From Terriglobia bacterium (lineage in GTDB: Bacteria > Acidobacteriota > Terriglobia > 20CM-2-55-15), in the NCBI GenBank assembly GCA_965198225.1, contig CBDAOY010000007.1:990045-1054044 (forward strand): a DNA stretch of 64,000 nt, written 5' to 3'. Shown one piece after another: positions 25,414 through 56,700 of this stretch. The position numbers and the translations under genes were made by a program. The notes under the pieces were generated by a model. That model did no database searches. It had not been told where the DNA came from and was given only the letters and a program-made list of their open reading frames with translations. How positions within the stretch are numbered: position 1 is the first letter of the stretch; every line of letters starts with the position of its first letter.

Positions 25414-25688
25414 CTAGTGACCTGTAACAGTGCTATCGGTACCAGCGTTCGGCGGAACGGCGTCGGATTCTAGGAGTGACGCCCGAGCCAATGCTGTTTC
25501 ATTGCGAGGGCGTTACGACACCGAAGACGGCGCCGTTCCGACGAACCCTTCGGGCCGATGGGGGTTGCGGGCGATCTCTTTGTCGGAAGCCGTCACCGAT
25601 GAAAGAGCATCGCTTTCCGTCTCCCTCCTCGACCTCGCCCGCAAGACCCATCGGCGATGGTGCCGATAGCACTGTTACAGGCCACTAG
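25414..25688. mobile_element. 275-bp MITE-like element, copy 1, with ~33-bp terminal inverted repeats CTAGTGRCCTGTAACAGTGCTATCGG
   Basis: The left TIR is at 25414-25447 and the right TIR at 25656-25688. The interior is highly self-complementary. A near-identical copy is at 34705-34979. Confidence 0.7.
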
Positions 25689-32122: not shown

Positions 32123-32143
32123 GAAATTCCTGTCTGAAAAGTT

Positions 32144-32400
32144 TTGGGTAAGTAGACACCCGAGGACAGGGCTATACCCCTGTCCCCCTCACATTGGCTC
32201 TTTCACGGACTTTTCGCGTAGCGACCGGAAAACCCTCTGTGCCTCCGCGCCTTTGCGGTGAGATCGCCGCTCTGAAGAGTTCTGCGTAAGCAGACACCCG
32301 GGGACAGGGCTATACCCCTGTCCCCCTCACATTGGCTCTCTCACGGACATCCCGCGTAACGACAGGAAAACCCTCCGTGCCTCCGCGCCTCCGTGGTTAG
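32144..32400. repeat. two tandem ~139-bp repeat units in the convergent intergenic region. Each contains the palindrome GGGACAGGGCTATACCCCTGTCCCC.
   Basis: Unit A (32144-32282) aligns with unit B (32283-32400) at about 88% identity. Confidence 0.7.
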
Positions 32401-34704: not shown

Positions 34705-34979
34705 CTAGTGACCTGTAACAGTGCTATCGGTACCAGCGTTCGGCGGAACGGCGTCGGATTCTAGGAGTGACGCTCGAGCCAATGCTGTTTCATTGCGAGG
34801 GCGTTGCGACACCGAAGACGGCGCCGTTCCGCCGAACCCTTCGGGCCGATGGGGGTTGCGGGCGATCTCTTTGTCGGAAGCCGTCACCGATGAAAGAGCA
34901 TCGCTTTCCGTCTCCCTCCTCGACCTCGCCCGCAAGACCCATCGGCGATGGTGCCGATAGCACTGCTACAGGCCACTAG
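34705..34979. mobile_element. 275-bp MITE-like element, copy 2
   Basis: It is about 97% identical to 25414-25688, with the same TIRs. Confidence 0.7.
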
Positions 34980-42511: not shown

Positions 42512-42623
42512 CATGAGTAAGTGGCCACCAGGCCATATCGCGCATGGCTTGCGCACGAACTCGACGTGGGCCATCGGCGTGAAGAAAGCGCCCGGCTCCA
42601 CAAATGTCGCCGGGTGCGGCCTA

Positions 42624-45077
42624 TCAGCAGCACTCGCCGGGTTCGCAACACTCAACGCTGGACAGCGCCGCGTCAGCATCCTTGGCCATCACCAGGAAAG
42701 ATCCCGCGTAAGGCTCTCGCGACAGTTTCGCAGCGGTATCGGTGCACACCTGGACGGGTTCGTTTCGGGGAAAGAGGTGGCCTTCCTCGTCGACGACCGC
42801 CTTCAGCGGGCCCAGATAGACGGCGCGCTGGCCTTCGAAGTTGCACACTCCGTTCTTCCCGAACTTGAAGCCCTGGATGATCAGCGAGTAGAAACGGTAG
42901 CCTTCGATCTCTTTCCAGAAGGTTTTCTCGACGAGCGACAGGCCGTAGAAACCCACCTGCTCGAGCATGGCGAAGTATTCATCTTCGGTCAGTGCTCCCG
43001 AGACGCACTCTCCCCACAGCCGGGGGTTGGCTTTCATGTGGTGGGGAATCTTCGATTCGGACACCGTGTCGGAGATGATCGCGCGGCCGTGATTCTTCAG
43101 AACCCGCCACATCTGCGAAAGTACGCGGCGTTTATCGGGCGAAAGGTTGATCACGCAGTTGGACGTCACGATATCGGCCTTCTGATCCTCCAGCGGAAGC
43201 TGTTCGAGGTATCCGCGCCGGAATTCGACGACGTCGTACCCGAGGGATTCGGCGACGATGCCCCGATTCCGTTCGGCCCGCTCGATCATTTCCGTCGTCA
43301 TGTCGATGCCGATCACACGACCGCTGGACCCGACGCGCTGTGCCGCGATAAAGCAGTCGATACCGCCTCCCGAACCGAGATCGACGTATGTTTCGCCCGG
43401 CTTGATGTCGGCGAACCGAATCGGGCTGCCGCAGCCGTAGGACACCTCGACGACTTCCTTCGGCAGTGCCCGAAGCTCGGCGGGGTCGTAGGCGGTCGGA
43501 CAGCACAGCGCTTCCTGAGGCTCGACGGCCGCCTGGGCGTAGAACTGGCGGACTTTCTCACGCGATCGTTCCAAGTCGACGGAGAGGACGCACGTGGAAC
43601 GGGATGTGGCGATCTCGAACCCCTCCGCTTCAATGGTTTCCATCTCAGAAAGCGATTCACCCATCGCGGCCACGACGGTCGGGGAATCGTATCCGGATGG
43701 GCCCTCATGGCTCTTGTTCTCAGAGGCGATCTGCTCGATCGCTCGGAGCAGCAGCCATTCGTGAACCTTCGAAAACGGGTCTTTTCCAAGGACGGTGCCG
43801 GAGTAGAAGAATGAATGTTCGACGTCACCGCCGCCGCACACGTAGCGCAGGTAGCATTCCTGACAGTCTTCTTTCGCGATGACGCTGGCTCGGCGCAGCG
43901 CGCGCGCGCGCGCGGATGTTTTCCAGATTTCCGCCAGCGGCTGTTCCTCGACGTTGCCCATAAGCAGTTCGGGGACACCGGCCAGCGCCGCGGAAGGATA
44001 GACGGTGCCGTCCGCGTAGACGCAGCAGCTGCTCGTGGCCGCGACCGACAGGTCCATCTTGACCCCGCGTCGGCCCTGAGCCCTTTCCCGGGCGACCTCG
44101 TAGTTGTCGAGCTCGATTCCCTTCGAAGATGCGTTTTCCAGGTATCGTTCCAGCATCTCGATGATGTCGGCGGTGAACGGACTCTGCATCTGGTCGTCTT
44201 CCAGAGCCCTGCCCTGTTTGTGGTCCCACAGCAGGTGATGACGCCGGACGCCGAGTTTGTCCAGGAACTCCGGGAATCGAGGAAGCGTGTCGAGGTTCGA
44301 GCGAGTCACGACAGTGGACACGGTCGGTTCAAACGCGGCGTCCAGCAGGGCGCCGATGCCTTCGACGGTTCGCTCGAACCCGGATCCGCGGATCGCGTGG
44401 TGGGTCTCGCGGTCGGGTCCGTCGATGCTGACCTGTAGGGCCACGTTGCCGTTCGCGGCGGCTTTGAGATTGGCCAGGGTATCGCCCCGGAAGAACATGG
44501 CGTTGGTCAGGATGACGAGTTCGCTGTCGGTGCAGATGGCCCGAACGATGTCGATCAGGTCGCGCCGTAAGAACGGCTCTCCACCGGTGATGTAAAATTG
44601 CCGAACACCCATCTGTTTCGCGTCGTCGACGATCTTCAGCCATCGATCAGTTGGAAGTCCCTCGATCCCTTTCGGGGAAGAATCCACGAGGCAGTGGGCG
44701 CAAGTCAGGTTGCAGCGGTTCGTCAGGTGCAGCCACATCTCTTGCGGCTCGTGGCGCTCGATCAACGCCCCGCGACCCGGATAGGTCGGGTGCTGGAACG
44801 GCTCGCTTCTCAGGAAGTCGGTCCGCAGTGCATGGTTGAGCAGCGTGCTGACGTCGAGCCAGGCTTCGGCCCAGTCCTTGCCCGCGTGGGACCGGTAGCG
44901 GCCCACAAGGTCCGAGACCCTCCGCTGTCCGTCGATCCAGCCGAGTATTTCGACGCCCGCTCGGTTCGTCACGATCCAGTTTGGCGCCTCGGGGTCGAAC
45001 ATCAGTCCGAATTCTCCGATCAGCCGCTCTTCGTAACGTGGGGGCGCGTGAAGTACCTGTTCAGGCAAGATAGTCAT
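42624..45077 (-). CDS. fusion protein: PqqD/RRE-like N-terminus + radical SAM (CxxxCxxC) + Cys-rich/SPASM-like domain (ArsS-like) + complete ArsM-type arsenite S-adenosylmethyltransferase
   Basis: The rSAM motif is TNRCNLTCAHC. The Cys-rich region is SSCCVYADGTVYPS...CQECYLRYVCGGGD. The ArsM half has LCCPTAY, YGCGSPI, VDLGSGGGIDCF, SNCVINLSPDK and LWGECVSGAL, with all four conserved ArsM cysteines present. The start has an AGGAGA RBS. Confidence 0.8.
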   Translation of the reverse strand: MTILPEQVLHAPPRYEERLIGEFGLMFDPEAPNWIVTNRAGVEILGWIDGQRRVSDLVGRYRSHAGKDWAEAWLDVSTLLNHALRTDFLRSEPFQHPTYPGRGALIERHEPQEMWLHLTNRCNLTCAHCLVDSSPKGIEGLPTDRWLKIVDDAKQMGVRQFYITGGEPFLRRDLIDIVRAICTDSELVILTNAMFFRGDTLANLKAAANGNVALQVSIDGPDRETHHAIRGSGFERTVEGIGALLDAAFEPTVSTVVTRSNLDTLPRFPEFLDKLGVRRHHLLWDHKQGRALEDDQMQSPFTADIIEMLERYLENASSKGIELDNYEVARERAQGRRGVKMDLSVAATSSCCVYADGTVYPSAALAGVPELLMGNVEEQPLAEIWKTSARARALRRASVIAKEDCQECYLRYVCGGGDVEHSFFYSGTVLGKDPFSKVHEWLLLRAIEQIASENKSHEGPSGYDSPTVVAAMGESLSEMETIEAEGFEIATSRSTCVLSVDLERSREKVRQFYAQAAVEPQEALCCPTAYDPAELRALPKEVVEVSYGCGSPIRFADIKPGETYVDLGSGGGIDCFIAAQRVGSSGRVIGIDMTTEMIERAERNRGIVAESLGYDVVEFRRGYLEQLPLEDQKADIVTSNCVINLSPDKRRVLSQMWRVLKNHGRAIISDTVSESKIPHHMKANPRLWGECVSGALTEDEYFAMLEQVGFYGLSLVEKTFWKEIEGYRFYSLIIQGFKFGKNGVCNFEGQRAVYLGPLKAVVDEEGHLFPRNEPVQVCTDTAAKLSREPYAGSFLVMAKDADAALSSVECCEPGECC

Positions 45078-45254
45078 GGGGTGTCTCCTGATTCAATGCG
45101 AAGGGCAAGTTCTCCGAACGAATCATTTGATCGACTTTTCTTCAGCCGATATTGTAAGCGAAGTCACCGAGATGGGAAGGGTAGCGTGGATGTCAAAGAC
45201 GAGAGAGGTGAGGGGCGCCGGCAGACGATGACGCGACCTGCCGGCGTCTGCGCC

Positions 45255-45588
45255 TTATCCCGGGCGTCGACGCATCTCTTCCCGGGTGATGAATCCATCA
45301 TCGTCCGCGTCGAGGCGGTCGAAGGCCTCAGTCGGTCGGGTCCACTCGTCACGAGAAACCTTGCCGTCGCCGTCTTCATCCATCTGGAGCATCGCGGCTC
45401 CCCGGCCACGTCCGCCTCTGCCCGGGCGGGAGTTCTGCATCTCTTCGAGAGTGATGAAGCCGTCGCCATCGGCGTCCATGGTCTCGAACATCTGCGCGGG
45501 ACCCGGAAACTCCTGCTGCGACACGCGTCCATCGCCATCGCTGTCGAGCCCCTGGAAACGGGCTTGAGGGTCTGCGCCTCTTCCGCCT
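45255..45588 (-). repeat. downstream copy of an exact ~310-bp tandem duplication. It encodes a now out-of-phase extra EF-hand segment (...DADDDGFITREEMRRRPG*).
   Basis: Region 45301-45590 is 100% identical to 45611-45900. At the junction the upstream copy carries 2-bp and 7-bp deletions, which create a TAG stop at 45589-45591. Confidence 0.7.
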
Positions 45589-46746
45589 CTATCCCGGGCG
45601 TCGCCATCTCTTCCCGAATCCATCATCGTCCGCGTCGAGGCGGTCGAAGGCCTCAGTCGGTCGGGTCCACTCGTCACGAGAAACCTTGCCGTCGCCGTCT
45701 TCATCCATCTGGAGCATCGCGGCTCCCCGGCCACGTCCGCCTCTGCCCGGGCGGGAGTTCTGCATCTCTTCGAGAGTGATGAAGCCGTCGCCATCGGCGT
45801 CCATGGTCTCGAACATCTGCGCGGGACCCGGAAACTCCTGCTGCGACACGCGTCCATCGCCATCGCTGTCGAGCCCCTGGAAACGGGCTTGAGGGTCTGC
45901 GCCTCTTCCGCCTCTGCCGCGGCCGCCCCCGAATTGCCGCTGGATTTCGTCACGAGCGAGGAGACCATCATCGTTTCGATCGAGCCGGTCGAACGTCTCG
46001 CCGTCGCCCGTCCACTCTTCCCGTGAGATTGTACCGTCCTCGTTCGTGTCCATGACGCCCATACCGCCCGCAGTCCCGGGCCTCTGCCCCGGCCGAGGGC
46101 GCATACCACGCATGCCGCGGCCGCGACGCTGTCCCTGTTCCTGTCCGTAGGCGGTGATCTCCCCTCTGAGAGCGACCTCGAGCGCTGCCCTGGCTTCGGG
46201 GACATCGAACCCGGCCGGCCCGGGGCGTCCCTTGAAGGCGATGGTGCCGTCGGAGCCCACGACATAGATCCGGTCGGGAAACGCGGCGTACGCATTCGCC
46301 GTCCGGTCGTCGATCTTGTCCAGAATGGTCGGCATCGAGATGTCCAAGGCGGTCGTACAGATGTTGGCTGCTTCCTGGCGCTGCTCGTCGGTTTTGGCTT
46401 GTTCGATCAGGATGCCGTCGATAACATTCGCCGCTCCGAGGTTGCCGTCGGTGGGATGCGCTTCTCGAATGTAGACGAAGAAGAAATTGGCGCGGTCCTT
46501 GTAAGCCTGGTACCAGTTTTCGATGTCCACGACATCGCGGCGGAACGGGCCTCAGGTATAGCTGGCGAAGATCAGCGCGGTCGGTCTGCCCGTCATCTCA
46601 GAAAGCGTAATCTTTTGCTTTCCGTCTTTTGTACTGAGCGTGAAATCAGGCGCCGTATCTCCAGGCGTGGGGCCGCCGCCTCGCCGCTGGGCCGTGGCAG
46701 GGCTCACCAGGACGAGGACCAATAACGCAGACGCGAATGTTCTCAT
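45589..46746 (-). CDS. selenoprotein: iodothyronine-deiodinase-like thioredoxin-fold domain (Sec encoded by UGA at 46552-46554) fused to a C-terminal EF-hand repeat array; secreted
   Basis: It has a signal peptide (MRTFASALLVLVLVSPATAQ) with a GGAGGA RBS. APDFTL...RPTALIFASYT-[TGA]-GPFRRD...FFFVYIREAHPTDG matches the deiodinase motifs FGSxT-U-PPF and FLxVYIxEAHPSDGW. The hairpin GAUGUC-GUGG-GACAUC lies 15 nt after the UGA. There are at least six DxDxDG EF-hand loops. Confidence 0.7.
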
Positions 46747-52611: not shown

Positions 52612-53751
52612 ATGCGCGTGCTCTCTTTTTCGCTGCAAGGCCTTAAAACCGGGTTATTTCTGCTATTCGCATCACTGCTGGCCGTGTCGGCGCCGATTCA
52701 GGCCAGCGCGCAGGCGAACAGCCCTCCGGCGGTGACGGGGCCAACCAGCGTCGACTACGCCGAGAACAGCGAGGAGACGGTGGCCACGTATATCGCTACG
52801 GACCCGGAGGCCGAAGCAATCGCGTGGAGCGTGTCCGGGACGGACCATGCGCTGTTTTCCATCACTGCGGGTGTCCTGGAGTTCCTGAGCCCGCCGAACT
52901 ACGAGAGGCCTATCGACGAGGGCGAAGACAACGCGTATGAGGTGGGCGTCACGGCCACGGATTCCTCCGGGGCGGCCGCCACCGTTGCGGTCACCGTGAC
53001 GGTAACAGACGTCAACGACCCGAACATCGTCCTCATCATGGCGGACGATGTCGGTTATGAGGCCTTTGGGGCATACGGTAGCGCACAGTACAGAACGCCG
53101 CGAATTGATGAGCTTGCAGCCGCGGGAGTTCGCTTCACGAACGCTTACTCAAACCCGGTATGCACCCCGAGCAGAGTTGCCTTGATGACGGGTAAGAGCA
53201 GTGTCAGGAACTATGTGGATTTCGGAGTTCTACTCCCCGGAGAATACACGATTACTGATCTCTTTAGTGGGGCCGGATACGCAACGGCCATCGCCGGAAA
53301 GTGGCAGCTTCACGGTAGTGTCGTAGGTAGTGACGTAGTGGCTGGTGTCCCTGCCGGAACCGGATTCGACACGTATTCCTTGTGGAATACAGCCAACACG
53401 GGTCGTAGTCGCTACTGGAATCCTTCCATCGAACGCGACGGTGAAATCATCGATCTGGGCAGCGAGGATTACGGGCCCGACATATTCACGAATTTCCTGC
53501 TGGAATTCATAGAGTCCAACAGAGATAAACCGTTTTTCGCCTACTACCCGATGGTGCTTCCTCATGATCCGTTCGGCTCGCCGCCGCAAGCCCAATGCGT
53601 CGATACCGCTGACGGACAGTGCAATTTCGAGGACATGGTCGCGTATCTCGATTACAACGTCGGCCGCATACGCGACAAGCTGGCGGACCTGGAGCTACTC
53701 GACAACACAATCCTCATATTCACCTCCGACAACGGAACTCACGCACGCTGA
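52612..53751 (+). CDS. giant surface protein, segment 1: signal peptide + cadherin-like domain + sulfatase N-terminal half
   Basis: It has a signal peptide (LFLLFASLLAVSAPIQASA) and a cadherin repeat ending VTDVNDP. The sulfatase motifs are IVLIMADDVGYE and the formylglycine site CTPSRVALMTGK. The frame ends in TGA at 53749-53751, inside a cacgcacgc repeat. Confidence 0.75.
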   Translation: MRVLSFSLQGLKTGLFLLFASLLAVSAPIQASAQANSPPAVTGPTSVDYAENSEETVATYIATDPEAEAIAWSVSGTDHALFSITAGVLEFLSPPNYERPIDEGEDNAYEVGVTATDSSGAAATVAVTVTVTDVNDPNIVLIMADDVGYEAFGAYGSAQYRTPRIDELAAAGVRFTNAYSNPVCTPSRVALMTGKSSVRNYVDFGVLLPGEYTITDLFSGAGYATAIAGKWQLHGSVVGSDVVAGVPAGTGFDTYSLWNTANTGRSRYWNPSIERDGEIIDLGSEDYGPDIFTNFLLEFIESNRDKPFFAYYPMVLPHDPFGSPPQAQCVDTADGQCNFEDMVAYLDYNVGRIRDKLADLELLDNTILIFTSDNGTHAR

Positions 53752-56700
53752 TCTGATTTCAGAACTCGGGGGAGAAATGATCCATGGGGATAAGAACATG
53801 CCCAACAATGGCGGCACGCGGGTACCGCTGATAGTCAGCGTTCCAGGAGGTGAGGGGGGACGGGTGTTCGACGACCTGATCGACTTCACCGACTTTCTCC
53901 CGACTCTGGCTGATGCGGCAGGTCTTACGATTCCTGACGTCAATATGCTGGACGGCGTGAGTTTTTGGGACAGGCTTCAAGGCCGAACCGGCCAACCGCG
54001 GGAATGGATATATACCTATTACTTCCCACGTCCGTTCGCCGATAGGTTCGACAATCCGCAACGTCATCCAGAGGCGTCGTATGTCCGAGACAAGCGGTAC
54101 CAGCTCTACGGAACAGGAGAGTTCTTCGACATTTCCGTAGACCCTCACCAAGTGCATCCGTTGCCGAGTGACGATGAAGAGTCCAGCGCCGCCCGTACCA
54201 AGCTGCAAGCGGTTCTCGACTCGATGCCGGGGAGAGGTGAGGAGATTTACCCATATTTGATAGGAACTGTCCCGGACTCTGAGCCGCGCCCGCGATGGCG
54301 GCCCGTCCTGTCGAAAGCAACTGTGAACGGCGGCCAATTGACGCTCACTTACGCCGGAATTCTGGACTCAAGAGAAGCGCCTCCCGCAGATTCCTTCATT
54401 GTGAACGTTGATGGTTCCGAGCGTGCGGTCTCCACAGTTTCGATAAGCAAAACAGCGGTTACGCTTACACTCGCTTCGGCGGTTACAGTTGGCCAGACGG
54501 TGACGTTGAATTACACGCCGGGAACGAATGCGATTCAGCACGCGAACAGGCCATTCGGGCACAAAGCGGCACCCCTGGTTCGCCAAGGGGTGACGAACAA
54601 CACTGTGGACACGACGGCGCCGGCGGTGTTGTCGATCACGAGCGACGCGACGCACCCGACGAAGAACGCTTTCACGGTGACGATAACCTTTTCGGAGGAG
54701 GTGAGGGGACTCACGGCGGGGGAGATCGCGGTCACCAATGGCACGGGCTCGAACTTTGCGGGCACAGGCGCGAGCTACATGCTCGACATCGAACCCAGCG
54801 ACGATATCGAAGCCGACGTGACGGTCCGGGTTCCGGCCGATGCGGCGATGGACGCCGCGAACCTCGGCAACATCGAGGGGATCGAGACCTTCGCGGTGGA
54901 CACCCAGGCGCCGGCGGTGTTGTCGATCACGAGCGACGCGACACACCCGACGAAGGATGCTTTCAGGGTGACGATCACCTTTTCGGAGGCGGTGACGGAG
55001 CTCACGTCGCAGGATATCGCGGTCATGAACGGAGTGGGCTCGAACTTCGCGGGCACGGACGCGCGCTACACGCTCGACATCGAGCCCAGCGCCAATACCG
55101 AAGACGATGTGACGGTCCGGGTTCGGGCCAACGCGGCGGTGGACGGCGTGAACATCGGCAACGTCGAGGGGATCGAAACCTTTGCGGTGGACACCCAGGT
55201 GCCGAGGGTGTTGTCGATCACAAGCGACGCGGCGCACCCGACGAAGGATACTTTCACGGTAACGATCACCTTTTCGGAAGAGGTGACGGGGCTGACGGCG
55301 AGTGAGATCGTGGTCAGCAATGGCCGTGGCTCGAACTTCGCGGGCACGGGCGCACGCTACACGCTCGACATCGCTCCGAACGCCAACCTTGAAGCCGATG
55401 TGACGGTCCGGGTTCGAGCCAACGCGGCGGTGGACGGCGCGAACAACAGCCACGTCGACGAGGGCGAGACCTTCGCTGTGGACACGCGGGCACCGGTGTT
55501 GATGAGCGCTGCGGTGGATGGCGACACGCTGACGCTGAGCTATGGGGAGGCGCTGGGCAACCCGACACCGGAGCCGGGCGATTTCACGATGAATGTGGAG
55601 AGCGCTGGGCGGAGCGTTTCCAGGGTGGCGGTGAGCGGAAGAGCGGTGACTTTGACGCTTGCCTCGGCCGTGGCGCATGGCGAGACGGTGAGAGTGAGCT
55701 ACAGCCCGGGGACGAACCCGATCCAGGACGCGGTGGGCAACCAGGCTCTGGGACTGAGCAACGCGTCGGCCACCAACACTACGGATGCACCCAACACGGA
55801 TCCGATGATCACGAGTCCGGGGCCGTTCAATGTCACTGAGAATCAAGCGCGGGTGACCCGGCTGATGGCGGCCGACGCCGACCCGGGGGACGAGGTCACC
55901 GGCTATACGCTTGTCGGCGGAGCCGATCGGGCCCAGTTCACGGTCGGTGAGGATACCGGAGATCTGGGCTTCCGGGCGGTTCCGAACTTTGAAGCGCCCA
56001 CGGATGCCTTCAGTAACGATCCGCCAAGTGGGGCAGGAGACAACGAGTACATCGTGGTGGTCCAGGTCAGCAGCGGGGCAGGAACGCGGGTGCGGACGGC
56101 GGAACAGACGATTCGCGTGCGGGTGAGTGACGTGGAGGAGCTTCCAGCGGCGCCGGAGGAGCCGACTTTTCCGAGGGCGACGCCGGACAGCCTGACGGTG
56201 GCGTGGACGGAGCCGGACAACACCGGGCCGCCCATCACCGGCTATGACGTGCAATACCGGGAAGGCGTCAGCGGCGGCTTCACGGATGCGCCGCACTCCG
56301 GGACGGCCCAAACCACAACGCTCATGGGGTTGAGCGAGGGCACGGCCTACCAGGTGCAGGTGCGGGCGAGGAACGCGGAAGGAACAGGTGACTGGTCGGA
56401 GCCGGGCGAAGGACGGACCGTGGCCCCGCTGAGGGTTCGGATGACGCCGGAGCTGGAGCCGCCGGTGGAGGGCCCGTTCTCGGTGAGGTTCAGCTTTTCG
56501 GAGACGGTGACGGGTTTCAGCGGAAGCGACATCGAGACGGGTCAGGACCTTGCCTGCATGGACGATCAGAACAACCCGGTGTTCTGCAACCCCGGCTTTG
56601 CGGCATTCGAGACCACGGATAGCCGGGTCTTCACCACCCGCGTGACCCCGAGGACCGGCGGGGTGGCCAATAACTACAAGCTCACGCTCACGGTGCGTGC

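Follow-up and report, generated by a model that had tools for sequence, protein, structure and literature searches.

A perfect tandem repeat of 325-nt period at the 3′ end of a probable EF-hand selenoprotein gene in a Terriglobia contig

The host gene and its neighbourhood

The window, a 64-kb stretch of contig CBDAOY010000007.1 from a soil Terriglobia metagenome-assembled genome (MAG), carries on its reverse strand a gene that starts at an ATG at 46746 with GGAGGAG ahead of it, lies in an open frame running from 46788 to 45589, and encodes a secreted deiodinase-family protein fused to six EF-hands (Table 1). The product matched the Pfam family T4_deiodinase (PF00837; E = 4.5e-24, 85.5 bits at a cutoff of 27), the NCBIfam model NF038285, 'deiodinase family protein' (254 bits at a cutoff of 250), and EF-hand families; the native protein holds six canonical EF-hand loops. 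An in-frame TGA at 46552–46554 lies in the motif FASYT-U-GPF, and the TGA within SYT-U-GPF is kept in the window and in four of the loci fetched from other contigs (L003, L004, L006 and L007), which reach down to 60% protein identity. A 7-bp hairpin, CGATGTC-GNG-GACATCG, placed 15 nt past the TGA, is conserved in the same four loci, with a fold z-score that is not significant. No tRNA-Sec was found within the 64-kb window. The host gene is probably a selenoprotein gene in which the TGA would be read as selenocysteine, and gene callers split it into a 64-aa open reading frame (ORF) and an ORF of 313 or 316 aa.

A family of deiodinase-like selenoproteins has been described from prokaryotes (PMC1088965; reviewed in PMC9312934), and the host gene resembles it in its PF00837 and NF038285 matches, in the UGA at its redox centre (SYT-U-GPF) and in the hairpin downstream of that UGA. 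To the features of this family, the subgroup containing the host gene adds a signal peptide and a C-terminal tail of six EF-hands.

The next gene downstream (42624–45077, reverse strand) encodes an 817-aa fusion of a PqqD-like N-terminus, a radical SAM/SPASM region and an ArsM-like domain; the last belongs to the arsenite methyltransferase family, and the protein ends in CCEPGECC. It is followed by DedA/VTT, DUF2064 and glycosyltransferase genes, a neighbourhood that L001 and L008 share.

Table 1 Features at the 3′ end of the deiodinase-family gene, in window coordinates
Feature	Coordinates	Strand	Description and basis
Affected gene	45589..46746	-	Signal peptide, deiodinase-family thioredoxin fold, Gly/Arg-rich linker, EF-hand tail
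GGCAGAGGCGGA motif at the 5′ breakpoint	45907..45918	-	The duplication has its 5′ breakpoint inside this motif, between 45916 and 45915; same 12-mer mid-unit at 45736-45747 and 45411-45422
Copy A (upstream, translated copy of the exact repeat)	45616..45915	-	100% identical to 45291-45590; in frame with the deiodinase ORF 45589..46530
Duplication junction, ending in TAG 45589-45591	45589..45615	-	Alignment of the copies; base-by-base comparison with L001, L003, L004 and L008; reconstruction of a clean duplication
25-nt junction proper	45615 down to 45591	-	Between Copy A and Copy B
Copy B (downstream copy of the exact repeat)	45291..45590	-	Past the stop; in the frame of ORF 45255..46295, unlike 45589..46530
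Native gene tail, ...ITREEMRRRPG plus TAA stop (45255-45257)	45255..45290	-	Same sequence as the tail in every single-copy sister contig
GC-rich hairpin, 10+2 bp stem	45216..45246	-	Begins 8 nt past the native stop; fold energy −29.6 kcal/mol

A perfect tandem repeat with a scarred junction

In the gene tail, 45291–45590 and 45616–45915 form a perfect tandem direct repeat of 325-nt period, identical at 300 of 300 nt (TRF score 1250, 100% matches, far beyond chance). The identical blocks cannot be extended by one base on either side, and none of the other offsets from 300 to 340 at this locus gave more than 40% identity. It is the sole 100% tandem repeat in the window, and its head-to-tail copies have the near-perfect identity that marks a recent tandem segmental duplication. 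An initial annotation had described an exact tandem duplication within the EF-hand tail; a perfect repeat, evidently very recent, is indeed present there, but at other coordinates. The intervals 45301–45590 and 45611–45900, which had been taken as identical (an offset of 310), share 26% identity, their register being off by 15 nt, and the unit of about 310 bp gives way to the measured period of 325 nt.

The ancestral unit is the final 334 nt of the gene and holds four EF-hands. From AGAGGCGGAAG..., within the Gly/Arg linker ahead of EF-hand 3, it runs to ...CCCGGGATA, where it breaks off after two of the three stop-codon bases. At the junction the 3′ end of the unit is joined to its 5′ start, ...CCCGGGAT(A)GAGGCGGAAG..., and the joint, GGGAT(A)GAGGCGG, offers at most 1 nt of microhomology. 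Alignment of both copies showed that 45591–45615 corresponds to the native tail 45256–45290 minus 9 nt. Against the single-copy sister contigs, seven of these bases (ATCACCC) are lost together and the other two, a C and a T, each on its own, in place of the 2-bp and 7-bp deletions first proposed; all three deletions lie in the tail of the first copy, no more than 33 nt from the joint. The junction 25-mer has no second site in the window and is absent from all 8 fetched loci.

Two sources of the junction were considered and rejected. Copying from a paralogue finds no similar sequence (up to 3 mismatches) in the window or the fetched loci. A 10-nt direct repeat, AGGCGCAGAC, has one copy in the unit start and one just past the stop; slippage between these AGGCGCAGAC copies would yield a 323-nt period and another junction.

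The hairpin past the native stop adjoins the 3′ breakpoint of the duplication. It folds at −29.6 kcal/mol (z = −2.3; 3 of 200 shuffled sequences folded equally well), and could be a transcript-end structure, albeit one that has no T-run and was not called by a consensus terminator scan.

Other repeats in the window are of different kinds. A sequence of about 275 nt occurs twice (25414–25688 and 34705–34979), 9.3 kb apart and 99% identical, and 110 nt of it recur at 97% identity in the sister species L006 (2365–2474), just upstream of the deiodinase gene there; the sequence could represent a short mobile or repetitive element. Two tandem arrays are diverged: one at 54605–55496 (291-nt period, 3.1 copies, 84%), which probably represents domain repeats in a large protein, and one at 32133–32390 (138-nt period, 1.9 copies, 90%).

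Effect on the stop codon and the protein

The gene ends at 45589, as originally annotated. The TAG at 45589–45591 is composed of the TA of the native TAA and the G that opens the next unit: the unit breaks off within the stop codon, and the first copy therefore retains a stop. This stop had been interpreted as premature and as a creation of the junction deletions. It is not premature, because it sits at the position homologous to the native stop: the product has 313 aa, compared with 316 aa for the native form from the same start, and no ancestral EF-hand is lost. Nor do the deletions create it, since a reconstructed clean duplication without them stops at the same codon. The deletions keep the reading frame because they sum to 9 nt (7+1+1); in a reconstruction with the 7-nt deletion alone, the frame would continue for more than 60 codons.

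At the protein level the tail changes from ...GF-ITREEMR-RRPG to ...GF-GKRW-RRPG, a net shortening by 3 residues, and the junction reads GKRWRRPG before the TAG. EF-hand 6 of the product lacks both its exiting helix and the Glu at loop position 12, and EF-hands 1–5 are intact; the duplication barely alters the protein. Copy A encodes ...RGGRGADPQ..., EF-hands 3–5 and the start of EF-hand 6, and in an EF-hand loop test (12-residue DxDxDG loops with an acidic position 12) it gave three canonical loops and one without Glu12 (DADDDGFGKRWR).

Copy B lies in the +1 frame because 325 = 3n+1. The downstream copy had been described as out of phase and as bearing the native C-terminus, and both points held, but it contains four canonical EF-hand loops and not three. 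It is an intact extra spare past the stop rather than a part of the gene that has been left out, and it is presumably untranslated. Stop-codon readthrough was dismissed as a route to its EF-hands: past the TAG the frame reads RRKRRRPSSPF..., which is the wrong one.

Relatives carry a single copy

Sister contigs were traced through the exact 817-aa downstream product and near-identical deiodinase products in sibling ENA assemblies, with ERZ25069191, ERZ25072076 and ERZ25067264 as sister samples. One contig, represented by L003 and L008 (ERZ25069191, 18x, 2.78 Mb, from another sample), aligns collinearly to the window for about 17 kb; apart from the insertion of 325 nt, the two differ there by 4 SNPs and one 2-nt indel. 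With 45591–45915 taken out, the window sequence matches L003 at all but 1 of 6,951 nt. L004 (6x, 382 kb) and L001/L005 (6x, 9 kb) are likewise single-copy with the native tail. The window shows 1-nt indels relative to L001 (6x) and L002 (2x), which may belong to those contigs.

A scan of GTDB species representatives, among which the window's own genome is not included, returned only two further, more distant Terriglobia MAGs, L006 (92% aa identity) and L007 (60%), each with a single tail and a complete sixth EF-hand. The 13 aligned homologues have the same arrangement, except for one shorter form, and the window product (P0121), encoded on a single contig of 1,077,544 nt, is the sole protein among the matches with a GKRW tail. 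In JGI metagenomes, a flexible pattern covering the native tail and the junction, which does match the window, gave 0 matches. The comparison with sister genomes that had been proposed at the outset thus yielded a single copy in 5 of 5 comparable relatives (L001, L003, L004, L006 and L007). Because these loci and the homologues have one tail, the single copy is ancestral, and within this set of sequences the two-copy state is derived and private to one contig.

The strains also differ around the gene. In L001 (113–1357) and L004 (1248–2492) the selenoprotein gene has a Transposase_mut (IS256-like) gene upstream of it, at a site corresponding to about 47007 of the window; neither the window nor L003 has it there. 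L008 loses its synteny with the window at window position 53622, next to transposases of its own. Mobile elements therefore differ between strains.

A further contig, L002 (ERZ25072670 ctg165375_2x_l, 1–1130), fuses a trigger-factor/ClpP (tig-clpP) locus directly to the EF-hand tail, of which it keeps the last 165 nt. It breaks at about 45415, inside the GGCAGAGGCGGA copy at window 45411–45422, and the 5′ breakpoint of the duplication falls in the same 12-mer. Either L002 is chimeric or a second rearrangement has occurred at GGCAGAGGCGGA. L002 also lacks 10 nt at window 42600–42609.

A real variant or an artefact

The two alternatives raised at the start, a recent duplication or an assembly artefact, remain the right pair. 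We consider the chances about even that a very recent tandem duplication, private to one lineage, took place at the 3′ end of the selenoprotein gene and that its scarred junction is real, and lean slightly towards a real duplication over an artefact. Both copies carry C (45331 and 45656) at a site that is G in L001 and L004, which speaks for a real event. So does the surrounding consensus, which is free of indels over about 17 kb except for the one 2-nt indel relative to L008. A poor local consensus would be expected of an artefact, and the 4 SNPs and single indel found in this span indicate that the window contig is not generally poor. Structural differences between strains, namely the transposase in L001 and L004 and the loss of synteny past 53622, also occur nearby.

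It is nevertheless quite conceivable, if short of probable, that the organism has one copy and that the second arose in assembly, consensus or library, from a chimeric or erroneous backbone read or from a polishing failure. The junction is known from one contig among all assemblies searched, and the virtually identical 18x strain (L003/L008) is single-copy. For clean slippage it is unusual that 300 nt without a difference should adjoin three small deletions, none of them farther than 33 nt from the joint; this 7+1+1-nt cluster resembles a low-quality patch and looks like poor consensus or a chimeric read. The 10-nt direct repeat AGGCGCAGAC, the expected substrate of ordinary slippage, was not used, and the same project yields at least one suspect join, that of the 2x contig L002, in the same EF-hand tail. 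That the arrangement was not reproduced in three sister contigs from other samples also fits an artefact, although a private real variant predicts the same. Against these points, the deleted bases lie outside homopolymers, the usual sites of long-read error, and the neighbouring 17 kb are clean. The ctgN_Nx_l names and megabase lengths suggest long-read assemblies, in which single reads would span the 625-nt structure; a 325-nt tandem is far below long-read size, so repeat collapse or expansion is not expected, and an assembler can put together only a junction that some read contains.

A mixture of the two is unlikely: the duplication would be real in some or all cells, and the junction deletions would be consensus errors from mixed one-copy and two-copy reads, such that the true first copy would encode the native 316-aa protein ending in TAG. 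A clean duplication, which ends at the same codon, would be phenotypically silent and could drift to detectable frequency, and perfect 300-nt repeats are expected to collapse often and to leave mixed populations. Partial deletions of 7, 1 and 1 nt, however, are no obvious product of window-based polishing.

The occurrence of GGCAGAGGCGGA at both the duplication breakpoint and the L002 break is a hint of fragility, drawn from two events selected post hoc. That GGCAGAGGCGGA is a genuine fragile site and the two-copy state a recombination-reversible switch between a crippled sixth EF-hand and the wild type seems very improbable. We give almost no credence to a functional device, either a variable-number contingency repeat or a programmed +1 frameshift at GGA-TAG-A that would fuse Copy B to the product and yield a ten-EF-hand protein: the frame of Copy B, counted from the A of the TAG, is shifted from that of Copy A by exactly +1, and the number of EF-hand pairs differs among distant orthologues (P0016 lacks the last pair), but the arrangement is in no relative examined, local RNA structure is not significant (z = +0.6) and an Rfam scan of the region gave only sub-threshold chance matches. 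A contingency locus was rejected on two copies only of a 325-nt unit, at the 3′ end at or beyond the stop, with one copy in all other strains; a prfB-like frameshift was rejected for want of a slippery codon (GGA cannot re-pair on GAT), of any counterpart in orthologues and of a structure signal.

Origin, fate and meaning

For a real, recent duplication, we propose the following course. A single illegitimate template switch or end-joining event beside the post-stop hairpin would have copied the 334-nt unit head to tail, and error-prone synthesis near the joint would have left the scarred junction. Copy B would then lie ahead of the usual 3′ hairpin of the gene as an untranslated spare. Direct repeats recombine through RecA-dependent recombination, and perfect repeats of 300 nt would do so readily, with collapse restoring the exact wild-type gene; the two-copy state would therefore be transient and without designed function.

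Work by Reams and Roth on gene duplication and amplification reportedly shows that short-junction tandem duplications in bacteria form independently of RecA and are lost in a RecA-dependent manner. The repeat resembles such duplications in its head-to-tail order, its novel junction with zero to few nucleotides of microhomology, its identical copies and its restriction to a single lineage, and, as for them, homologous recombination is expected to remove it rapidly and to leave the exact parent sequence. It differs in that the unit is 325–334 nt within and just past a gene instead of multi-kb, and in the three extra small junction deletions, which clean slippage does not make. With false tandem duplications in assemblies it shares its occurrence in one assembly, an irregular junction, single-copy related assemblies and the suspect 2x join of L002; unlike them, it lies in the interior of a contig of more than 1 Mb, has a clean surrounding consensus and is much shorter than long reads.

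The same tail appears to have a history of such events. The 334-nt unit is made of two older half-units of about 160–165 nt that are 68–75% identical, and the bases around the native stop (GGA TAA GGC GCA GAC) match the linker (GGA AGA GGC GCA GAC) at 13 of 15 positions. Together with the variable number of EF-hand pairs, this suggests that the tail grew by like duplications before. The ancient duplications of EF-hand pairs are the same kind of event, but they are in frame, diverged and translated, whereas the new one extends into the stop codon, lies out of phase and contributes nothing to the protein.

The duplication is an ordinary private event or an assembly error, and its biological weight is small, as it concerns one variant or error at one gene end in one soil Terriglobia MAG. 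For annotation, P0121 (313 aa) has a non-native C-terminus, and EF-hand or selenoprotein analyses of this MAG should use the 316-aa form (P0122). The 334 nt past the stop are a silent copy of coding sequence and not intergenic DNA, and 45255–45590 is best annotated as a silent duplicate. More interesting than the duplication is the host gene itself, which encodes a secreted deiodinase-like protein, probably a selenoprotein, with six EF-hands, beside a radical-SAM/ArsM-like fusion.
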